DNA of 37,527 bases from an uncultured Alphaproteobacteria bacterium (GTDB lineage Bacteria; Pseudomonadota; Alphaproteobacteria; Rs-D84), in assembly GCA_944390835.1 (NCBI GenBank), contig CALXQT010000014.1, positions 1 through 37,527 on the forward strand, in the 5' to 3' direction. Positions 7,001-16,720 of the stretch are shown here, piece after piece; positions within the stretch are counted from its first letter, which is position 1; the number at the start of each line of letters is the position of its first letter. The notes beneath the pieces were generated by a model. It was not told the DNA's origin. It was given only the letters and a program-made list of their open reading frames with translations, and made no database searches. The translations under genes were made by a program, and so were the position numbers.

Positions 7001-7067
7001 TTCCTATCCTTGTAAAATATGTTTTTGATAACTTCACTTTGTGTATTATAATGTGTTGGTGAATTTA

Positions 7068-9170
7068 ATGCTAGAAAATCTTAATCCAGAACAAAAAAAA
7101 GCAGTTGAAACGACAGAAGGGCCGTTGTTAGTGCTTTCTGGCGCAGGAACTGGGAAAACACGCGTACTGACGACACGTATTGCATATATATTGAATAACG
7201 CATTGGCTTTGCCGTGGCAGGTTTTGGCGCTTACTTTCACTAATAAAGCCGCTAATGAAATGAAAAATCGGTTGGCTATGTTTTCAGCAGATTCTGGGTG
7301 GTATGCCGGGGACGTTTGGTGTGGTACTTTTCATTCTATTTGCTTGCGTATTTTACGGGCTAATGCGGTTGCTGTTGGATTACGGCGTGACTTTTTGATA
7401 TACGGTGAAGACGAACAGAAAACAGTTTTAAAACATGCATTATCTGAATTAGGGCTGGATATAAAAGATTTTAACCCAGCTGACTGGATAGAACGTATTT
7501 CTGCAATAAAAGATAGAGGTTTAAATAGTTATGAGCATACTTCTGCTATTGCAACTAAAATATTAGATGCATATAACAGTGAACTTTCCAGACTTGGGGC
7601 GATTGATTTTGGTGATATTATATTAAAAGTTCTGGAGTTGTTTAATGCGATGCCGGATGTGTTAACTCGTTATCAGAATCAATTTAAATATATTTTAGTG
7701 GATGAGTTTCAGGATACTAATCTTGCCCAGATGCAATTTCTGCAGATGTTGACACAGAATAAAGATAATCCAAATATATGTTGCGTGGGTGATGATGATC
7801 AGTCCATTTATTCTTGGCGTGGTGCAGAAATAAAGAATATTTTAAACTTTGAGAAAAATTTTCCTAGTGCTCAAATAATTCGTTTGGAAACCAATTATCG
7901 TAGTACTCCGAATATATTGGGGGCGGCGAATTCTTTAATTCGTCATAATTCTGGGCGTTTGGGGAAAGATTTGCGTGCGAAGTCTGGTGTTAATGACGGT
8001 GAACCTGTATACGTTTTAACCGTACCAAGTGATTTCGATGAGGCAAGGTTAGTTGCAGATACAATAATGCGTAAAGATGATGCAGAATCTTACGCAGATT
8101 ATGCGGTGTTAATACGAGCTGGTAGTTTATCTCGTTTGTTTGAAGAAGAATTTACATCTCGGGGTATACCATATAAGTTAATTGGAGCAACGAAGTTTTA
8201 TGATAGAGCAGAAATTCGTGACGCGATTGCGTACTTGCGTGTATTAGTATACCCGTTTGACGATATTTCTTTTATGAGAATTATTGGAAAACCGCGTCGC
8301 GGTTTTGGCCCAGCAGCAATTAATAAGTTGCGACTACTTGGTGAAAATTTAATGGCTGGGTTAAAAAATGCGAACTTAACCGGAAAGCAGGGAACCGCAG
8401 CGGACGAGTTTTTGTCGGCATTTGATTTTGATTGGAAAAATATGCGACCAATGGAGGCGGCACAAAAAATATTAGATGCTTCTGGGTATATACAGATGTG
8501 GCGAGAATCTAAAGATATTGATGCGCCAGATAGGTTAGATAATATTCGTGAATTAATTACAAACGTAATATCTAAGTACGATACTTTAGAAGAGTTTTTA
8601 GAGCATGCCGCTTTGATGATGACTGATGATAATGATTCAGACGACGTGGTAAATTCTGCAGATTCTGTCAGCATTATGACGATACATGCTGCAAAAGGGT
8701 TGGAATTTGATACTGTTTTCTTACCTGCATGGGAAGAAGGCATTTTCCCAAACGATATGGCGATACAGTCTGGGGGCCTAGAAGAAGAGCGTAGGTTGGC
8801 ATATGTTGCAATTACGCGTGCAAGAAAACGAGCTATCATAATAAATACTATGTCTAGGTTAGTCTTTGGAACTAGGCAGTATAATTCTCCTAGTCGATTT
8901 ATAACGGAAATGGATAATCGCTTTTTAGATTTTCAGGGTGGAAGTCCTAGGCCTCATAAATATTATCACGGAGTACCTACACCATATTCAGAACCTGTCA
9001 AACAGCGCCGAGAGTCAATTAAACACGCGTCGTCAGTAGGGCGATTGGTAGAACATCAAGAAATGGGACGAGGTGTTGTAATAGAAGAAAACGATGATAT
9101 TTTGACGGTTGCTTTCCGCGCGCGTGGAATAAAAAAAGTTGCACGTAAGTTCGTTGCGTTTGTGGATTAA
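7068..9170 (+). CDS. uvrD: ATP-dependent DNA helicase UvrD/PcrA/Rep family
   Basis: LNPEQ Q-motif, GAGTGKT, TFTNKAA, VDEFQD, VGDDDQSIYSWRGA, NYRS, TIHAAKGLEF, EERRLAYVAITRA. The ATG at 7068 is preferred because a TTGATA-N16-TATAAT promoter overlaps the GTG at 7041. Confidence 0.95.
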   Translation: MLENLNPEQKKAVETTEGPLLVLSGAGTGKTRVLTTRIAYILNNALALPWQVLALTFTNKAANEMKNRLAMFSADSGWYAGDVWCGTFHSICLRILRANAVAVGLRRDFLIYGEDEQKTVLKHALSELGLDIKDFNPADWIERISAIKDRGLNSYEHTSAIATKILDAYNSELSRLGAIDFGDIILKVLELFNAMPDVLTRYQNQFKYILVDEFQDTNLAQMQFLQMLTQNKDNPNICCVGDDDQSIYSWRGAEIKNILNFEKNFPSAQIIRLETNYRSTPNILGAANSLIRHNSGRLGKDLRAKSGVNDGEPVYVLTVPSDFDEARLVADTIMRKDDAESYADYAVLIRAGSLSRLFEEEFTSRGIPYKLIGATKFYDRAEIRDAIAYLRVLVYPFDDISFMRIIGKPRRGFGPAAINKLRLLGENLMAGLKNANLTGKQGTAADEFLSAFDFDWKNMRPMEAAQKILDASGYIQMWRESKDIDAPDRLDNIRELITNVISKYDTLEEFLEHAALMMTDDNDSDDVVNSADSVSIMTIHAAKGLEFDTVFLPAWEEGIFPNDMAIQSGGLEEERRLAYVAITRARKRAIIINTMSRLVFGTRQYNSPSRFITEMDNRFLDFQGGSPRPHKYYHGVPTPYSEPVKQRRESIKHASSVGRLVEHQEMGRGVVIEENDDILTVAFRARGIKKVARKFVAFVD

Positions 9171-9188: not shown

Positions 9189-10487
9189 TTATTTTTTTTC
9201 ACGCCATAGTTTAATAAATTCTTTGCTTTTGTTATATGTACTTGTCCACAATGTCTTAATATCATTGGTAAAGTCTTTTTCAAAACTATTATTTATTTTA
9301 CCACCTAGATCTTCGGCAATTTTATCAGCCTTGTTGGCAAGATAGGCAACCAATAATCCTGTTAGTAGTGTTATGACAAATCCGGCGTTATCTAATGTTG
9401 GGATCTTAGCAGATAGATCAGCGTCTATTGTGCCAGATAATAGTGCCGCACATAACGCGATAACAATTGATAAAGAAACGAAATAAATAGCGGCGTTTAT
9501 AAAACGTTGAATTTGATTTGATAAAGTTTCTGGTTTGAACAATCCCAGAAAACCGTTAAATATATCTCCGACAATACCTTTATATGAAGTGTTTTTTACG
9601 GTTTCCGCAATCGCGGTAAACGGTAACATTATAACGGCCAAGAACAAATCCATTATAACGCCAAGACCCATAAGAGTAAACTTAAATGCATTATATATAA
9701 AGATTACTATAAAAGCAGCACCAACCGCCATTGTAAAAGCACTGGTCCCAATGCCGGCAATTAACCAATGCCAACCTGCGGCAATTGCCGTTGTAAAAAA
9801 GCCAGATAAACGCGTGGGAACACAAAGAATATCTGCGGCCGCTTTTGCGTCAATTATCATTCCATTTGAGGCTTTGGCAGCGGCATATTCGCGAATGGCA
9901 TTACAGGTATCTGGTATTTGTGCACCGGCTGAATTCGTCACGGCATTTAATATAAGATCTGACATATAAGTTGCGATGCTTATTATTGGCCCCATAATCC
10001 ACATGAATACTTGTGCCGGTCCTTGGACAAGAATAATTGACCAAATTGCTATTATAGCACCCTTTTTAACGATCGTTTCACCAAGTGCCATTGCGCTGGA
10101 ACCTTTAGTGATCATATTATAGGCTTCAAACATAATCCATAATATATATGTCAAGATCATGAATATTATTGCGAAACGAACAAGCGAAGAATCTAATATA
10201 TCCGCCAACCACGAAAGAGCGTCCATCATCGCAAAGCCTATTTTTGCTTCGACTGGTACATAATTTGGAACCAACTGTTTCTTTTGAAATTCGGATTGGA
10301 ATTTAACCATATCTGACCCAAGCATAGTATTAAATTGTTCTATGTTTTCTGTAGTCATCCAATCGCCATAATCGCCAACTTCTGTAAATGGTACGTTTGT
10401 GGTTGCTGCTGTTACAGGTTGTATCGTTAACAGACCTGCAAAAGCAACTGCGATTATGTTTTTAAAGATTTTTTTTAATAATCTCAT
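9189..10487 (-). CDS. VirB6/TrbL-like polytopic membrane protein (paralog 4)
   Basis: Signal-like N-terminus, several TM helices, a periplasmic Cys pair (DTC...LCVP) and the VirB6-like segment VIMDLFLAVIMLPFTAIAETV. Confidence 0.6.
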   Translation of the reverse strand: MRLLKKIFKNIIAVAFAGLLTIQPVTAATTNVPFTEVGDYGDWMTTENIEQFNTMLGSDMVKFQSEFQKKQLVPNYVPVEAKIGFAMMDALSWLADILDSSLVRFAIIFMILTYILWIMFEAYNMITKGSSAMALGETIVKKGAIIAIWSIILVQGPAQVFMWIMGPIISIATYMSDLILNAVTNSAGAQIPDTCNAIREYAAAKASNGMIIDAKAAADILCVPTRLSGFFTTAIAAGWHWLIAGIGTSAFTMAVGAAFIVIFIYNAFKFTLMGLGVIMDLFLAVIMLPFTAIAETVKNTSYKGIVGDIFNGFLGLFKPETLSNQIQRFINAAIYFVSLSIVIALCAALLSGTIDADLSAKIPTLDNAGFVITLLTGLLVAYLANKADKIAEDLGGKINNSFEKDFTNDIKTLWTSTYNKSKEFIKLWREKK

Positions 10488-11923
10488 TATTCTTTACCAG
10501 TTGCCTTTGATATTGTTTCAAATATTTGTCTTGGACTGTCCCATATTTTTTTGCCTAAATCTTTCGCCCATGTTCCAAAATCAAATTTTTCTGAACCTTC
10601 TGCTATTAAAATACTATCAACTTTTGGTTTAATCGCATAGAAATATAAGAAGAACAGCAAAATCATCATTAATAAAAATTCCCAACCATCATCCATGAAG
10701 TCAAAAGCACCAGGGTATTGATTCTCAACTTGGGTACGTTGAGCTATGAAACAAGCTTTGAATTTATCTGCGTCAATTTCACCGTCTACAGTGGCAACAT
10801 GTTCGCAAGTTGAAAAAACGTTTATAACAGATAATGTTTGAGCATTAGGGTTTTCTATTTTTTGTCCCATTAGTGGAGGTAAAATTGCGCTATACCCATC
10901 ACGTGGACCAGGGAAGTAAGAGTCTGCAGCATAAGCAACAATTGCATATGTAATAAGTACTTTTAAAGTTATTCCTACAATTTTTATTGCTGAGTTTACT
11001 AACATATTTATGGCGTTTTTTATAACACCGTTGGCTAAAGACCATGTTTGTTCAAATGCAGCGGCGGCTAATAATAACGGTAAGAATATAATTAAAAAAA
11101 CTAATTTGAACACAACAGATAATATTTGAAAGACTAGATCAAATCCAATTATTAAAAACATTAAAACTAATGTTAGCCCGGCTAACCATGTTAATACCCC
11201 ACCACCTAATCCTAGCCATGCGTAGTTCATTAAAGAAAAACCCCCGGCGGCTCCTGCCAGCATTACACTATTTATATTACCCATAACGCACATAAATGGT
11301 TGTAATATTGGGTTTAATATATCAGAGTTTTTGCTTGTCGTTGTTAAAGCCCCGCACTGTGCCGCATCTGATACACCTGTTGCCGCCATAGAAAGTTCAG
11401 CACCGACAAACAGAACCGGTGTTATAGTTATGTTTGAAACAGTTCTTAATGCCGCTGTGCCACCCATACCTAAAGCACCCATAAGTGCGCCAACAATTAA
11501 TACCCTGGCACCTTGTCGCCATACTTTGTCAAACCAACCAGCCAGTTCAAGCTTTTTTTCTTTTTCGTCTAATTCTGAGGTTTTTTTCGCCGCGTCAAAA
11601 ATATATTTTGCGGTATAGATAATTAGAAATATCCCAAAACCAAGAGACATTAATATCCAAATGTTATCAACCATTGCGGTCCAAAACATTTCTGCAGCGT
11701 TACCAATAACTGTAAATAGTTGTTCGATATATCCGCATAAAAAGCAGCCATTTGCTGACGCTATATTCCCATCGCTTACACCAATTGTATTCATAAAACC
11801 ATCTAAACTGGTATAAGTTATTGCAGCCCCACCAATAGAAGATGATAAATACCATATACCGATACCTAACGCAATTGCGCCCATAATAAATTTGATAGCA
11901 ATCATTATTAATTTTGCTTTCAT
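10487..11923 (-). CDS. VirB6/TrbL-like polytopic membrane protein (paralog 3)
   Basis: N-terminal CFLC, multiple TMs, segment FKLVFLIIFLPLLLAAAAFEQT; the stop overlaps the next start (TAATG). Confidence 0.65.
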   Translation of the reverse strand: MKAKLIMIAIKFIMGAIALGIGIWYLSSSIGGAAITYTSLDGFMNTIGVSDGNIASANGCFLCGYIEQLFTVIGNAAEMFWTAMVDNIWILMSLGFGIFLIIYTAKYIFDAAKKTSELDEKEKKLELAGWFDKVWRQGARVLIVGALMGALGMGGTAALRTVSNITITPVLFVGAELSMAATGVSDAAQCGALTTTSKNSDILNPILQPFMCVMGNINSVMLAGAAGGFSLMNYAWLGLGGGVLTWLAGLTLVLMFLIIGFDLVFQILSVVFKLVFLIIFLPLLLAAAAFEQTWSLANGVIKNAINMLVNSAIKIVGITLKVLITYAIVAYAADSYFPGPRDGYSAILPPLMGQKIENPNAQTLSVINVFSTCEHVATVDGEIDADKFKACFIAQRTQVENQYPGAFDFMDDGWEFLLMMILLFFLYFYAIKPKVDSILIAEGSEKFDFGTWAKDLGKKIWDSPRQIFETISKATGKE

Positions 11924-11926
11924 AGT

Positions 11927-13192
11927 TTACTTCTTTTCACCGTCTTTTTTGCCATCGCTTTCTTTATTTCCGGTACCATCTTTTTTTTCATTTTCATTTT
12001 TTTTGTTTTCTTTATCTTTGGCGTCGCCGCCATTTAAAATATTTTTACCGATATTAGTTGCAGTCGTAATTACTGAAGATGTCAATTTCATTGCGTTGTC
12101 GGCTAATTCTTCACTTAAGTTGTTCTTTGCGGATACACCAAAAGAATCTAATATCATAGAAGTTACCTGTGGAATTTGGTCGTATATAAAGTTTAACACA
12201 TATACCAATATAATGCAGCTGCCCAAAGTCATAGCGGCAAGATTTTCTTCGGATAAATCACCTGCAAACACTTGCCCTGTTGTAATAAGTTCCATAATTT
12301 CTGCTGCACTCTGACCGGGTGCAGAAAAGAATTTAGCAAGTATTACCATAATAACAGTATAGGTTATTACAGCAGACGCAAGCGCAATTATTGAATTAAT
12401 TAGGTCTTTAAATTGCTTTGTTCCTATGTTTTTACCAAGAGAAGAAATCCATTTTGGTGCATCGTCTCCTTTGAAAGCGACCAATATTAAGGACAGTGGG
12501 AAAAAGAATGCAAAAAACGTCATTGCTACGATTATGTCTGCAAAGTAAAAGCAGAAACGGATAAAAAATTTAAAGAAACCGTAAAATAAATAGGCCCCTA
12601 TAAAGAATAAAATAATGTGTTTTATAAGCGAACCAATCCCTAATAATGCCTTTAAAGAAAAAGCTTTGTCCATAACAGCAATTCCTAGTTTCATATATGA
12701 CTGGAATTGAGTAATGGTTGTTTTCATCAGCATAATTATTTTGTCACGTAATTGTGGTCGAAAGAATCCTTCTTCTGACATTTTTTCTGGTTCATATGTT
12801 ACCTTTTCAGTAACATCTGTGCTGTCGATATGTAACATACTTTGGGTATAGATTAGTGTTATATCCGCAACAGGTTCAAATGTAATGCTTGTTATAAAAC
12901 GGGGAAACATGACACCCATGCTTAAAAGTGTAAGCGCTACTAAAGAGTTTATAATAACAGGTTTGATGGATTTTTGGTACAATGGGTCTGAAATATCCTC
13001 TTTCATATTTTTCCAGACCGCGTTTATGACGTAAAAAGAAAATAAAATGCAAAACAATATTGCACAGAATATTACAAATTGATTATATACTGCACCAGCG
13101 GCATCTGACACGATTTGAAATAAACGGTCAAATACGGGACAGCCCCAGCACTGTACCGTATCATCAATCAAAGAATTCATAAATCCGTTCAT
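11927..13192 (-). CDS. VirB6/TrbL-like polytopic membrane protein (paralog 2)
   Basis: N-terminal CWGCPVFDRLF, multiple TMs, segment FADIIVAMTFFAFFFPLSLILVAF, charged K/E/D tail. Confidence 0.65.
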   Translation of the reverse strand: MNGFMNSLIDDTVQCWGCPVFDRLFQIVSDAAGAVYNQFVIFCAILFCILFSFYVINAVWKNMKEDISDPLYQKSIKPVIINSLVALTLLSMGVMFPRFITSITFEPVADITLIYTQSMLHIDSTDVTEKVTYEPEKMSEEGFFRPQLRDKIIMLMKTTITQFQSYMKLGIAVMDKAFSLKALLGIGSLIKHIILFFIGAYLFYGFFKFFIRFCFYFADIIVAMTFFAFFFPLSLILVAFKGDDAPKWISSLGKNIGTKQFKDLINSIIALASAVITYTVIMVILAKFFSAPGQSAAEIMELITTGQVFAGDLSEENLAAMTLGSCIILVYVLNFIYDQIPQVTSMILDSFGVSAKNNLSEELADNAMKLTSSVITTATNIGKNILNGGDAKDKENKKNENEKKDGTGNKESDGKKDGEKK

Positions 13193-14484
13193 TTCTTTTT
13201 AAACCATCCTATTGCGGTACCAATTGCAGAACCTGCACTTTTAATGCGGTTAGCAAATACTTTTGTATCCCCTTTTACTTGGTTGTATAATTTATCCATA
13301 CCCGATCCGACATATGAATCTAATTGTTTGCGAGTAAGCTCAAATATACGAAACATTAAATAAAACGTTAATATTGCAGATAACCATAATATAGAGTGCT
13401 GTCCGAACCCAAGTGCGCTATTTGCAATGCTTGGAACATTTGATGTTGCGGTTCCCCCAGCCGCCACAACAAATATGGAAGAGTTCCATTGGAATAAAGA
13501 TTTTATGATTGCTATGTTTACGCATAAAATAAAAGAGCATGCGATCATAGTTATGACAATTTTTTGTAGTGCTTTAGTTATCCCACCAAACGCAGGCCAT
13601 ACGTCTAGCCATTGTTTGCTGGGCTTTGCGACATATGTTAATACTTGAAATGGGTAAAGTACTAAAGCCATTCCAAAGTTAAAGATGGCTTGTATTATAA
13701 GCAAAGCCATAAATAAATTACTGGCGACAAAAGTGAAAACTAATATTAGCCCCGTAATCAGATTTAAGAAATCTTCTCCGCCATGTGGAATGAGTGTTAT
13801 TAAACCGCGCAAACCCTGATTTATAAATTCAAAGCCGCGTTTAATAATTGTGTTATTCGCATGAGATATATCTGATACGGGCTGTACTAAAAATTCGCAA
13901 CTGTCTTGAGTCAGCCAACCTTGTTCTATTATTGATGGGGGACATTCTATTTTAGGGGCGTTTATACCTGCGTCATTAACAGTTTCTGTTATACTGTGGG
14001 TATAAAGCGAACCGAATTTTAGGAATGGATTTATAAGCCATTCTGTTAAATATACAGGTTTAATCTGTAATAGGACCGTTACAGCAACAATTGCACGAAT
14101 TGCTGGTTTAAGCATGTTGCTGGCTATAGTTATTCCATCAACGCCATCTGAAATTTCACCGCCACCAGAAAAACCGAAAAAAGAAACCCACAATTTTGGA
14201 AAATACATTTTGAGTAAATATAATACCATAGATACAGCTAAGAATCCCCAAACAAGAATATATATTATACCGGTTCCCCCACCAACAAAGAATTCATATC
14301 CCCCAGTGGCGATAGCCATAAGTGCGTCTAATATTATTGGAATCAGCGGGGCTAAATTTAAAGCGTCGACTATTGTGCGTTCAGCAGCACCTGCAATTGA
14401 TGGCATGAATAAAAAGCACGCTAATAAAGCAACGCTTAATATGCGCTTAAAAGCGGGATAAAAATTTTGTTTTAATGAAAACAT
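13189..14484 (-). CDS. VirB6/TrbL-like polytopic membrane protein (paralog 1, first in operon)
   Basis: Signal-like N-terminus, multiple TMs, Cys pair ECPP...SCEF, segment IFNFGMALVLYPFQVLTYV; ATGA overlap with the next gene. Confidence 0.6.
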   Translation of the reverse strand: MFSLKQNFYPAFKRILSVALLACFLFMPSIAGAAERTIVDALNLAPLIPIILDALMAIATGGYEFFVGGGTGIIYILVWGFLAVSMVLYLLKMYFPKLWVSFFGFSGGGEISDGVDGITIASNMLKPAIRAIVAVTVLLQIKPVYLTEWLINPFLKFGSLYTHSITETVNDAGINAPKIECPPSIIEQGWLTQDSCEFLVQPVSDISHANNTIIKRGFEFINQGLRGLITLIPHGGEDFLNLITGLILVFTFVASNLFMALLIIQAIFNFGMALVLYPFQVLTYVAKPSKQWLDVWPAFGGITKALQKIVITMIACSFILCVNIAIIKSLFQWNSSIFVVAAGGTATSNVPSIANSALGFGQHSILWLSAILTFYLMFRIFELTRKQLDSYVGSGMDKLYNQVKGDTKVFANRIKSAGSAIGTAIGWFKKK

Positions 14485-14510
14485 TCTCTCTATGTTATTT
14501 TATCTTTTCA

Positions 14511-14544
14511 ATTATATCACATTTACGGCAAAATATGATATACT
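14511..14544. promoter_or_regulatory. Back-to-back divergent extended -10 promoters
   Basis: Minus-strand TGATATAAT at 14519-14511 and plus-strand TGATATACT at 14536-14544. Confidence 0.55.
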
Positions 14545-14552
14545 TAAAAATA

Positions 14553-15842
14553 ATGAATAAATTAAAAAAGTTTTGGATAGTTTTTTTATCTTTCTTGCCC
14601 TTTTCTGCAGGGGCGGTTGCTCCATTAGTCGTGGGTACGATTGCTGGTTTGGGTGTTATTGCTGGTTTTTCTATATACAGAACTGCTGCCCCAGTAAATA
14701 TGGCAGACGCATTAAATTTTTTCAGTACTTGTTGGTCGTGTCAGATGTTCTCTGACATTATGGCCACTATGTCCGGTTTACTCCCGCGGGTTTATGGTGC
14801 GATGGGATCTGTAATATTGCCGTTATCTGCCGGATTAATGGCGATATGGTTTGCGTGGAAATTATTTTCCGGTTTTATAAACGCAAAAATAGAAGAGCCT
14901 TGGACAATTGTCGGTGATTTCGGAACAAAATTTATAAAGTTAGGTTTGGTTGCAGGGTTGCTTGTCATACCCCTGCCAAGAATATTAACAAATGTTGTAA
15001 TAGAGCCTGTATTTAATGTAGGTTTGTCTTTAAATCGTGCTGTCGCCGGAAATGATGATTTTGCAAAGTGTGTGGTTGCCACCGCTTTGGCGGACCCTAG
15101 TGCTGCAAGTGTTTCTACAGCCTCGGCTGGTGCTTTTTCGCCCAAACTGCGGCATAATTTAGTCTGTGAAATAGCCAATATTCATCAGATGACCGGACTT
15201 GGAATGACAGTTGGTTGGACAATGTTAAGTATGGCTTTTAATGAAGAATACATGCATCATTTTTTATGGTTTGTCCCGATTTTTCCGAATATACCTATCT
15301 TTTTTACCGGTTTACTTATATTAGTTTTGTTCTTTTTTGCGTTACTGCCGGTGCCTTTGTATTTCTTGGAAGTTTTTATAACGCTTTCAATGGATTTAGT
15401 AATGTTGCCGTTTATGTTAATGTCTTGGCTGTTTAAGGGATGGGCAATATTCCCAGATGGGGGCAGAAATGTTAAAAAAATGATAGAGGATGTTATAAAG
15501 GCGACGGCTGGAATTGCCTTGGTAGGCGTTTTTGTCACGTTTTCTGTCATGTTTTTAAACGCTGTTTTTGGACAGTGGGAGGGTGCTGATAGATTAGCAC
15601 TGGCGCTATCAGAAAATGATTCAACTATTTTGATGGATGGTTTATTAATGCGAAATGACAGCATAATAACAATAATTTTAATGGGAATTTTCATTGCTAT
15701 GTTCATGACAATGATACCTACACTAGTAAAAACTTTGTTCGCGAACGTAGAAATTCCTGAAACCTATTACGAAAAGACGAAAGAAAATTTAAATATTTTA
15801 TGGAAAAGCCTGAAAAATTGGTACGAATCACTAAAAAAATAA
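14553..15842 (+). CDS. VirB6/TrbL-like polytopic membrane protein (paralog 5, divergent)
   Basis: Start re-called at MNKLKKFW (signal-like), avoiding overlap with the opposite gene. CWSCQMF motif, a second Cys pair, and segment FITLSMDLVMLPFMLMSWLF. Confidence 0.65.
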   Translation: MNKLKKFWIVFLSFLPFSAGAVAPLVVGTIAGLGVIAGFSIYRTAAPVNMADALNFFSTCWSCQMFSDIMATMSGLLPRVYGAMGSVILPLSAGLMAIWFAWKLFSGFINAKIEEPWTIVGDFGTKFIKLGLVAGLLVIPLPRILTNVVIEPVFNVGLSLNRAVAGNDDFAKCVVATALADPSAASVSTASAGAFSPKLRHNLVCEIANIHQMTGLGMTVGWTMLSMAFNEEYMHHFLWFVPIFPNIPIFFTGLLILVLFFFALLPVPLYFLEVFITLSMDLVMLPFMLMSWLFKGWAIFPDGGRNVKKMIEDVIKATAGIALVGVFVTFSVMFLNAVFGQWEGADRLALALSENDSTILMDGLLMRNDSIITIILMGIFIAMFMTMIPTLVKTLFANVEIPETYYEKTKENLNILWKSLKNWYESLKK

Positions 15843-15910: not shown

Positions 15911-16429
15911 ATGAAGCAGTTTCCGATTCTTTATTGGCCACGTAAGATGAACGCTGATACTGATTATCAGCTGGCGCGTAAGGTTATAAATGGTGCAACC
16001 GGTGTCATGCCAGATGTGGTAACTGGTGACGTTGATCTGATGTTGATTTTAGAAGAAAACCCCAGTGCTACGATATATTATCCTGTGTTTTGTGAATCCA
16101 CAGGCTGGTGGGGTGAATTGTTGGGGGGAAGTGCGGTTGTTACAGATAAAATGATCATTTCTCCAGAATGTCAGCTAATGGTCATAGAATCTGAACGTAC
16201 GGCGAATAAAGCCGGAAAAGGCGGGAAAAATCAACTGTTGGCGGCGGAAATATATCCGGCCAGCGGTTTTTTTAAGAAAATGAATTCTGGTATTGCAACT
16301 GTGGCAGATATGTTGGCAACTGATGCTGGAACTATTTTAGCGTTGTTTACCGGTAAGAATCAGTCTCAATTTATAAATGTATTAGAATCTACGGGAAATT
16401 CATATTTAGGCTGCATCGGCAGATATTAA
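15911..16429 (+). CDS. Hypothetical cytoplasmic protein
   Basis: 172-aa ORF fills the gap with normal composition and has a TATAAT box 8 nt upstream; family not recognised. Confidence 0.7.
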   Translation: MKQFPILYWPRKMNADTDYQLARKVINGATGVMPDVVTGDVDLMLILEENPSATIYYPVFCESTGWWGELLGGSAVVTDKMIISPECQLMVIESERTANKAGKGGKNQLLAAEIYPASGFFKKMNSGIATVADMLATDAGTILALFTGKNQSQFINVLESTGNSYLGCIGRY

Positions 16430-16507: not shown

Positions 16508-16720
16508 ATGAAAAAAGGAATTCATCCAGAATATCATGAAATAAACGTAACCATGACAGATGGTAAAACGGTAAAAATGTATTCTTCTGTGAAGAAAGAT
16601 TTGGTTTTGTCCACAGATAACTTAAATCATTCTGCATGGACTGGTCAACGCAGCAATGTCGGCGAAAAGGGTCAACGTGCTGCTGGTTTTAAGAGTAAAT
16701 TTGCTGGATTTAAATTTTAA
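16508..16720 (+). CDS. rpmE: 50S ribosomal protein L31 (Cys-free, non-zinc type)
   Basis: MKKGIHPEYH...MTDG...HSAWTG...F..KF. Confidence 0.95.
   Translation: MKKGIHPEYHEINVTMTDGKTVKMYSSVKKDLVLSTDNLNHSAWTGQRSNVGEKGQRAAGFKSKFAGFKF

Follow-up and report, generated by a model that had tools for sequence, protein, structure and literature searches.

A conserved array of five divergent VirB6/TrbL-type genes in Candidatus Enterousia, a genome-reduced alphaproteobacterium of the order Rs-D84

Background

Multiplied VirB6 genes are a hallmark of the type IV secretion systems (T4SSs) of the Rickettsiales (PMC11077975), and according to a 2025 preprint their purpose is still "a mystery" (bioRxiv 10.1101/2025.08.29.673095). 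Here we describe an array of five divergent VirB6/TrbL-type genes, designated A to E, on contig CALXQT010000014.1 of assembly GCA_944390835.1, a Candidatus Enterousia genome of the order Rs-D84. The window, i.e., the whole stretch of DNA that was analysed, is this complete contig of 37,527 nucleotides (C14), and the assembly comprises 816 kb in 57 contigs with 91% completeness. A genomic study of the group (PMC12306168) assigns Enterousia to the GTDB order Rs-D84, reports genomes below approximately 1 Mb without most biosynthesis and standard transporters, and proposes an obligate symbiont or parasite lifestyle. Proteins related to B were recovered from gut metagenomes of animals and humans.

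Among described systems, the closest relative in kind is the rvh T4SS of Rickettsia, a scattered system with five RvhB6 proteins of 674–1154 amino acids (aa) (PMC2653234). In PMC11077975 its hallmarks are given as multicopy VirB6, duplicated VirB4 (RvhB4-I and RvhB4-II), VirB8, and VirB9, and no VirB5 analogue, and rvh is regarded as a rickettsial signature. The Enterousia system resembles rvh in having five tandem, extremely divergent VirB6/TrbL proteins that are mutually similar only in a short region, chromosomal T4SS islets that lie among housekeeping genes and are inherited vertically, and a second VirB8 (one of the two matches in this genome being below the cut-off). As to VirB5, the Enterousia genomes searched show no match over the Pfam cut-off, but four of them give weak ones. 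Both systems also belong to partner-dependent alphaproteobacteria with reduced genomes. However, VirB4 is duplicated in rvh and single in Rs-D84 (exactly one CagE_TrbE_VirB match in 51/51 genomes), and in comparison with the duplicated VirB9 of rvh only one VirB9 match (CagX) was obtained here, although a short second copy could escape the search. Moreover, the Enterousia array is not located downstream of virB3-virB4, its proteins are considerably shorter (421–478 aa), and the Rs-D84 paralogues form a group of their own in a tree that was computed without named Rickettsia sequences. Thus, the system works like rvh, but it is not filed as an rvh member.

The T4SSs of Anaplasma, Ehrlichia, and Wolbachia are also split and carry tandem VirB6 paralogues (VirB6-1 to VirB6-4); the four paralogues of Ehrlichia reportedly interact, a result ascribed to Bao et al. 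in 2009. For Anaplasma the paralogues are described as co-transcribed and all expressed (PMC7648143). In contrast to Enterousia, the genes of the Anaplasma group share one operon with sodB, virB3, and virB4-1, and the C-terminal extensions of their products are sometimes huge (PMC7648143).

As for structurally characterized systems, the R388 machine has a VirB5 pentamer resting on a pentamer of VirB6, and the DotA-IcmX assembly of Legionella Dot/Icm is pentameric as well (PMC12857230). R388 TrwI/VirB6 (PDB 8rtd, 8rt9, and 7o3v), which makes up the pentameric base of the stalk with VirB5, is the best match of the protein B model described below. TrwI, however, is encoded by a single gene of a conjugative plasmid, forms a homopentamer with ~270 resolved residues per chain, and has no sequence-level match to B. 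Legionella DotA (DotA-IcmX, PDB 9ngy) is likewise a pentamer of the VirB6 type and occupies the central axis of a T4SS that translocates effectors, but it is a much larger single protein, belongs to a type IVB system, and gives a weaker match.

According to the results presented here, A–E are, with a probability of roughly 0.8, five non-redundant, anciently diverged VirB6/TrbL subunits of the chromosomal, vertically inherited, vir-like scattered T4SS of this genome; this probability refers to their identity and role and does not extend to the stoichiometry. Arrays of several VirB6 paralogues within scattered T4SSs are already known from alphaproteobacteria; what is new is the lineage, the minimal size of the proteins, and the strictness with which the number five is kept. 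The main text of PMC12306168 contains none of the terms "secretion", "T4SS", or "VirB", and a literature search, whose scope did not extend to the 2023 Enterousia paper cited in PMC12306168, returned no paper linking Rs-D84 with type IV secretion.

Results

Sequence evidence for VirB6/TrbL-type proteins

The assignment is supported by profile comparison with decoys. A profile referred to as ext was built from 7 open reading frames (ORFs) lying under over-cut-off Pfam TrbL matches in other small alphaproteobacterial genomes. Aligned with hhalign against ext, proteins A, B, C, D, and E obtain 87.4%, 97.6%, 95.6%, 93.0%, and 98.6%, respectively, while the controls give 96% for canonical TrbL, 0.1% for the soluble neighbouring protein F, and at most 2.3% for reversed-sequence decoys. 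Compared with canonical TrbL directly, E reaches 53%. Being used as a hidden Markov model (HMM) against all 2061 ORFs of the genome, ext matched only E (1.8e-18), B, C (6.7e-14), and D (5.7e-9).

Distant relatives provide a second link to the family. The B homologues P0157, P0169, and P0187 score 27.6, 35.7, and 31.1 bits, respectively, and thus exceed the Pfam TrbL cut-off of 25.9 bits, as does the position-1 array protein of a relative (26.2 bits). The B family itself is narrow, with 76 representatives among 1.84 billion. The nearest Atlas clusters by protein language model, which are taken as leads only, point in the same direction: for A they are auto-named TrbL/VirB6 (0.97), and a cluster in which 89% of members carry PF04610 scores 0.90; for D they are auto-named TrbL/VirB6 (0.98), and TraJ/TrbL-bearing clusters score 0.90–0.91. 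An alignment of position-1 proteins searched against proteins of 1009–2880 aa gave nothing at E ≤ 0.001, which is weak evidence. The VirB6/TrbL-like character proposed by the first-pass annotation of the window is therefore upheld by profile comparison, with the five being very divergent proteins of this type.

Homology among the five paralogues

Pairwise identity between the paralogues is only ~20%, and direct phmmer comparison connects them weakly, with C–E at 3.6e-9, B–E at 6e-4, and A–D at 2e-3. Genus-level profiles of 25 rows each were composed by taking even steps through 70–80 full-length orthologues. The highest hhalign values for these profiles belong to C–E (97.1%) and A–D (92.4%), followed by A–E (80.7%) and A–C (73%). 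Intermediate values are reported for A–B, B–C, B–E, and D–E (55%, 40%, 37%, and 33%, respectively), and B–D and C–D remain at ~1% or less. Reversed-sequence decoys do not exceed 2.3%. In addition, the E profile matches all five array members in the relatives L107 and L108, and the D and A profiles match single array members in other families. These profile links join A–E into a single connected superfamily in which A and D have diverged the most, in line with the mutual homology assumed in the first-pass annotation.

Structural model of protein B

When an alignment of 44 rows was supplied, AlphaFold2 modelled B with a predicted local distance difference test (pLDDT) value of 73 and a predicted template modelling (pTM) score of 0.68. 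Without an alignment the pLDDT was 48, and that model was unusable. The best structural matches of the former model are three R388 TrwI/VirB6 chains (Z 12.2–12.7), with 257–269 of 261–272 residues aligned at 11–14% identity, followed by Legionella DotA (Z 8.7, 229 residues aligned). The first unrelated chain, a helical one, has a Z of 6.9. Foldseek also places a TrwI chain, 8rtd_L, at the top with a probability of 1.00. According to the model, B has the VirB6 fold, so that the match to R388 TrwI anticipated for the array has been obtained for this one protein.

Other T4SS genes in the genome and across the order

Components of a T4SS are spread over five other contigs of the same genome. VirB3 is encoded on contig C24 and followed by an ORF that runs off the contig end, and contig C5 ends within VirB4, of which it contains the C-terminal 537 aa; most simply, the two are parts of a single virB3-virB4 operon split by an assembly gap. 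Contig C9 contains VirB8, VirB9, and an ORF of 300 aa that is truncated where the contig stops and is read as the start of VirB10; the ~3.5 kb between VirB10 and VirB8 in relatives fits this ORF. Contig C13 carries a lipoprotein gene, a second VirB8-like gene, and two ORFs without a family match, and contig C41 carries a 331-aa VirB11-like ATPase. No VirB6 gene was found in this genome beyond the array.

A similar set is present throughout the order. Among the 51 Rs-D84 genomes, the single VirB4 noted above is accompanied by VirD4 in 49 and by VirB10 in 49, and all 19 of the other Enterousia genomes searched have both VirD4 and VirB10. Two or more VirB8 matches occur in 18 of 20 Enterousia genomes, and mostly one in other families. 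The genes are scattered in relatives as well. A single 648-kb contig of G040 carries them at four well-separated sites, namely the array (149–159 kb), VirD4 (199 kb), VirB4 (436 kb), and VirB8–VirB10 (487–491 kb), and in family f2 the array is located ~6.5 kb (G025) and ~14 kb (G034) from VirB10. Since the other T4SS genes are found elsewhere in this genome and in its relatives, the array represents the VirB6 islet of a scattered, complete chromosomal T4SS. The statement of the first-pass annotation that no other T4SS gene accompanies the array is consequently correct for the window and incorrect for the genome.

Several further observations concern these contigs. At 514 aa the VirB9 homologue (C9:929-2473) is a long protein, and its C-terminus weakly matches the peptidoglycan-binding SPOR domain (E 0.0015). 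The ORFs C9:1-900, C13:6818-7459, and C13:6025-6813 gave no meaningful match among PDB sequences, and both C13 ORFs are without a Pfam match. A type IV pilus-like cluster (C5:2629-7302) is located a few kilobases from the VirB4 fragment and encodes a PilB-like T2SSE ATPase, a T2SSF platform protein, and a PAP_PilO-family protein; pili are not mentioned for Rs-D84 in the published metabolic survey.

As for VirB5, none of 21 Enterousia genomes has a match over the Pfam cut-off, and four have weak matches (~17 bits, E ~0.002). These sub-threshold matches cover the N-terminal half of VirB5 and fall in ORFs of 361–411 aa, while sub-threshold VirB2/TrbC pilin matches were seen for ORFs of 128–148 aa in 3 of the 21 genomes. 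Candidate VirB5/VirB2 sites are G006:C15:106862-107170 and G020:C8:15036-15335 (L157 and L158), as well as G002:C7:84261-84527 (L159). Such matches may represent very divergent VirB5 and VirB2.

Conservation, copy number, and phylogeny

The set of five genes is complete, with identical order and orientation, at 76 of 80 Enterousia loci; contig ends interrupt the remaining 4. Outside the genus, 15 loci were taken from five other Rs-D84 families (12 uncut and 3 cut by contig ends), and 11 of the 12 uncut arrays consist of five tandem polytopic genes on one strand. In these families E is the first array gene and shares the strand of the others, which indicates that E was inverted in Enterousia. 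The ratios of nonsynonymous to synonymous substitution rates (dN/dS) of A–E against their orthologues are 0.04–0.09, with saturated dS; the five are real genes under strong purifying selection.

A quick maximum likelihood tree of 80 rows and 403 columns (LG+G4) was computed from the window, 2 of the 80 Enterousia loci, 8 of the 15 distant loci, 5 loci of other alphaproteobacteria, and 7 of 11 canonical TrbL sequences, with support given only by the Shimodaira–Hasegawa-like approximate likelihood ratio test (SH-aLRT). The paralogues group by array position, which runs from 1 for E to 5 for A (Table 1): the tree requires 10 label changes in comparison with a mean of 53.4 for shuffled labels, and no value as low as 10 occurred in 200 shuffles. 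The clade of position 4, with 10 of its 11 members, has an SH-aLRT of 98 (the mark of the tool being 95). Together with the counts above, this supports the maintenance of five orthologous lineages in relatives, a point that the first-pass annotation had suggested testing. The Rs-D84 paralogues come together with an SH-aLRT of 94, separate from the arrays of the five genomes of other alphaproteobacteria, which hints at a separate VirB6 expansion in Rs-D84; deep nodes of the tree are unsafe because of long branches and skewed composition.

The proteins vary in length across the order. In the arrays L100–L112, outside Enterousia, N-terminal extensions of ~240 aa occur at positions 2 and 3, and long C-terminal ones lengthen the position-5 proteins to as much as 978 aa. 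In Enterousia all five have been trimmed to the sizes listed in Table 1.

Arrays of the other Rs-D84 families also contain a 78–94 aa two-helix membrane ORF directly upstream of the first VirB6 gene. Three copies were scanned against Pfam and gave no match, apart from one weak unrelated one. An identification of this ORF as VirB3 was dropped, given the Pfam result, the lack of a counterpart in this genome (best E 0.027), and the true VirB3 on C24. At two alphaproteobacterial loci of other families, L141 and L144 (genomes G063 and G118, 1.4–1.7 Mb), five VirB6-like genes stand in tandem; queries with the VirB3 and VirB4 of this genome located neither gene beside them. Finally, a typical Enterousia array, whose B orthologue is 70% identical, occurs in a record titled Bacteroides fragilis (L087), which is probably a mislabelled bin.

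Organization of the locus

Table 1. Coordinates of the array, its neighbours, and related features (positions in the window unless a locus is given)
Feature	Coordinates	Strand	Description
uvrD	7041-9170		Pfam UvrD-helicase, 3e-83
VirB6 paralogue A	9189-10487	-	432-aa ORF; array position 5; most diverged member
VirB6 paralogue B	10487-11923	-	478-aa ORF; array position 4
VirB6 paralogue C	11927-13192	-	421-aa ORF; array position 3
VirB6 paralogue D	13189-14484	-	431-aa ORF; array position 2; heads the D-C-B-A operon
Divergent spacer D/E	14485-14552	.	68 bp; presumably holds both promoters
Inverted repeat in spacer	14495-14524 vs 14531-14560		30 nt, imperfect, 77% complementary
Candidate promoter site	14516-14544	+	consensus promoter scan
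VirB6 paralogue E	14553-15842	+	429-aa ORF; array position 1; least diverged ("central") member
Protein F	15911-16429	+	172 aa, soluble, hypothetical; 68 nt downstream of E, same strand
70-aa ORF	16508-16720		presumed ribosomal protein L31
Two-helix ORF, other Rs-D84 families	L103:16552-16815, L105:4519-4785, L108:13678-13944, L109:16122-16385, L110:16415-16699, and others		78–94 aa, upstream of the first VirB6 gene

The ORF listing reproduces the layout given by the first-pass annotation, including the five ORFs, their overlaps, the gap, and the divergent spacer. The ends of D and C share 4 nt (ATGA), a gap of 3 nt lies between C and B, and A shares a single nucleotide with the stop codon of B (TAATG). 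The spacer length of 68 bp applies if E starts at 14553; the form of E in the public protein collection has 429 aa, which corresponds to this start. The same collection has no names for A–F or for three B orthologues. In total, A–E comprise 2191 residues, and a simple hydropathy scan reports roughly 5–8 hydrophobic segments in each of them.

The conserved Pro that had been noticed at the end of a hydrophobic segment falls into a single aligned column (VIMLPF in A, IFLPLL in B, FFFPLS in C, VLYPFQ in D, and VMLPFM in E) and is kept in 70% or more of the 73 related rows and in 3 of the 4 canonical TrbL rows shown. Two Cys pairs are nearly invariant among the paralogues and their relatives as well: one, which is a CxxC in B, C, and E, lies in the periplasmic N-terminal portion, and the other, with ~25–30 residues between its members, lies upstream of the Pro helix. 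Their conservation suggests disulfide bonds.

The flanks are as initially described, with uvrD on one side and a hypothetical gene, F, on the other. The 70-aa ORF beyond F is presumably ribosomal protein L31, to judge by its N-terminus. Other flanking genes encode a DnaQ-like exonuclease, an inositol monophosphatase, and a class A penicillin-binding protein. A mobile element or recent transfer was considered and rejected, and no mobile-element signal had been seen in the flanks in the first reading of the locus: the guanine-cytosine (GC) fraction across the array (0.35–0.39) is like that of the remaining window, the housekeeping synteny is conserved, and the array occurs throughout the order.

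The inverted repeat in the D/E spacer holds extended -10-like elements in both directions, TGATATAAT-like on the minus strand and TGATATACT-like on the plus strand, and a consensus promoter scan also reports a plus-strand site there (Table 1). These elements presumably function as promoters. The plus-strand element ends only ~9 nt ahead of the E start codon, and hence E may have an mRNA with no leader or almost none.

Protein F follows E in 74 Enterousia loci and evolves under purifying selection (dN/dS 0.05–0.09). It has no match in Pfam or NCBIfam and is unrelated to A–E, with hhalign values of 0.1–0.2% against all five, and its profile matches no ORF in the 15 loci from other Rs-D84 families. 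The membership of F in the VirB6 system is uncertain.

Discussion

The interpretation of A–E as the VirB6 subunits of a scattered T4SS has to be weighed against a number of results that speak against it. At the sequence level, hmmscan against Pfam at E ≤ 1 gave no match for any of the five, none reached the NCBIfam threshold, and in a six-frame Pfam TrbL search B alone appeared with 11.7 bits (E 0.06), below the cut-off. The Pfam miss is a sensitivity limit of one model and not a structural criterion. Protein A is missed by the ext HMM at E ≤ 0.1 among the 2061 ORFs and is linked solely through profile–profile comparison (87% with ext and 92% with D) and language-model neighbours. Regarding the fold, the evidence covers B alone among the five, the E-value of the top Foldseek match is only 0.05 and those of the others are weaker, and for helical proteins a Z of ~13 borders on the range of chance arrangements. 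Besides, the B-family profile found no VirB6 among PDB sequences, the best hits being unrelated chains at E 1.1. At the genome level, no T4SS gene adjoins the array here, and the genome search for virB4, virB8–virB11, and virD4 that the first-pass annotation had suggested yielded virB4, virB8, virB9, and a virB11-like gene but neither VirD4 nor the TrbI domain of VirB10 in this 91%-complete assembly, both of which are inferred from relatives. As for the copy number, one array has four copies (L102, in a genome that is 72% complete), the loci of other alphaproteobacteria have 5, 5, 3, at least 3, and 2 tandem copies, and Anaplasma and Wolbachia have four copies instead of five (PMC7648143; 10.1101/2025.08.29.673095). 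Since these other alphaproteobacterial loci range from 2 to 5 copies, five is not universal.

If A–E are VirB6 subunits, they would each contribute to the inner-membrane-anchored stalk or protochannel part of the T4SS. Five conserved VirB6 genes in so small a genome, four of them coupled, together with a single VirB4, VirB10, and VirD4 per genome, argue for non-redundant parts of one machine. In this case all five would be built into one apparatus with VirB3, VirB4, VirB8–VirB11, and VirD4, although for such co-assembly the odds seem evenly balanced. The simplest arrangement would be a mixed five-fold stalk in place of the R388-type homopentamer. The machine would deliver substrates from the metabolically dependent bacterium to a partner cell; outward transfer appears preferable to ComB-like uptake because VirD4 and VirB11 are present. 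A complex prediction for B and C, each given as an alignment, scored 0.00 in comparison with a mark of 0.32 and weighs neither way.

The strictest form of this arrangement is a 1:1:1:1:1 heteropentamer of A–E, which would constitute the five-fold VirB6 stalk and make the T4SS core asymmetric, with five different faces. We regard it as a tentative proposal. It would account for the presence of exactly five genes in fixed order throughout an order with genomes below 1.1 Mb, where redundant genes normally vanish, and the translational coupling of D-C-B-A, through its two overlaps and the 3-nt gap, fits equimolar synthesis. VirB6 homologues are pentameric in both R388 and Dot/Icm (PMC12857230), and five-member arrays recur in two other alphaproteobacterial genomes (L141 and L144) and in Rickettsia (PMC2653234). 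E, however, is transcribed apart from the other four genes in Enterousia, related systems manage with four copies and other sampled loci with 2 or 3, so that five is no general rule, and five separate essential roles would preserve order and number equally well. It is also conceivable, if rather doubtful, that a heteropentamer arose in the Rs-D84 stem lineage independently of the five RvhB6 of Rickettsia, a convergence for which the VirB6 ring with its five-fold symmetry would be responsible. The literature search returned no paper joining VirB6 with a heteropentamer or RvhB6 with a pentamer.

Alternatively, the array may encode five specialised VirB6 variants, each homopentameric and serving a different machine, a different substrate, or the regulation of secretion. 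The low identity of the paralogues (only ~20%) and the differing N- and C-terminal extensions in other Rs-D84 families are what one would expect under this explanation, and the literature on rvh describes its duplicates as possibly autoregulatory (PMC11077975) or "presumably functionally redundant" (10.1101/2025.08.29.673095). The presence of one VirB4, VirB10, and VirD4 per genome, however, suggests one machine scaffold, the coupling of four genes speaks against independent regulation, and the copy number is constant in 76 complete Enterousia loci, which makes such specialisation rather unlikely.

Another arrangement is a stacked or layered stalk, in which some paralogues replace VirB5 or other missing periplasmic parts and VirB6 rings follow one another along the channel axis. 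The lack of an over-cut-off VirB5 in the 21 Enterousia genomes (four of which have the weak matches at E ~0.002) would fit this arrangement, as would the VirB5 pentamer that sits on the VirB6 pentamer in R388 (PMC12857230) and the combination of multicopy VirB6 with "no VirB5 analog" stated for rvh in PMC11077975. This proposal is purely inferential, however; a short divergent VirB5 easily escapes Pfam, and all five proteins share the same membrane-anchored core layout, so we consider it improbable.

The reading offered by the first-pass annotation, a domesticated T4SS-derived module that stands alone, e.g., a VirB6-derived transporter or uptake pore, has very little left in its favour: the array does lie among housekeeping genes in conserved synteny away from T4SS genes in Enterousia, and standard nutrient transporters are lacking in these bacteria (PMC12306168), but this genome encodes VirB3, VirB4, VirB8, VirB9, and a VirB11-like ATPase and its relatives VirB10 and VirD4, the T4SS set co-occurs across the order (VirB4 51/51, VirD4 49/51, and VirB10 49/51), no other VirB6 gene is available to serve that T4SS, the array is 6.5–14 kb from VirB10 in family f2, and the same scattering is usual in Rickettsiales (PMC2653234).

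With A–E taken as the VirB6 subunits of the T4SS of this genome, multiplied VirB6 is now placed in a different uncultured lineage, the gut-dwelling, genome-reduced Rs-D84, and these partner-dependent gut bacteria are given a concrete cell-contact machine. The Enterousia array also represents a simple test bed for the idea that five VirB6 copies fill five stalk positions. If true, a heteropentamer would explain the multiplication of VirB6 in rvh-type systems, and its demonstration would be most tractable with the Enterousia set, whose proteins are small and free of extensions.

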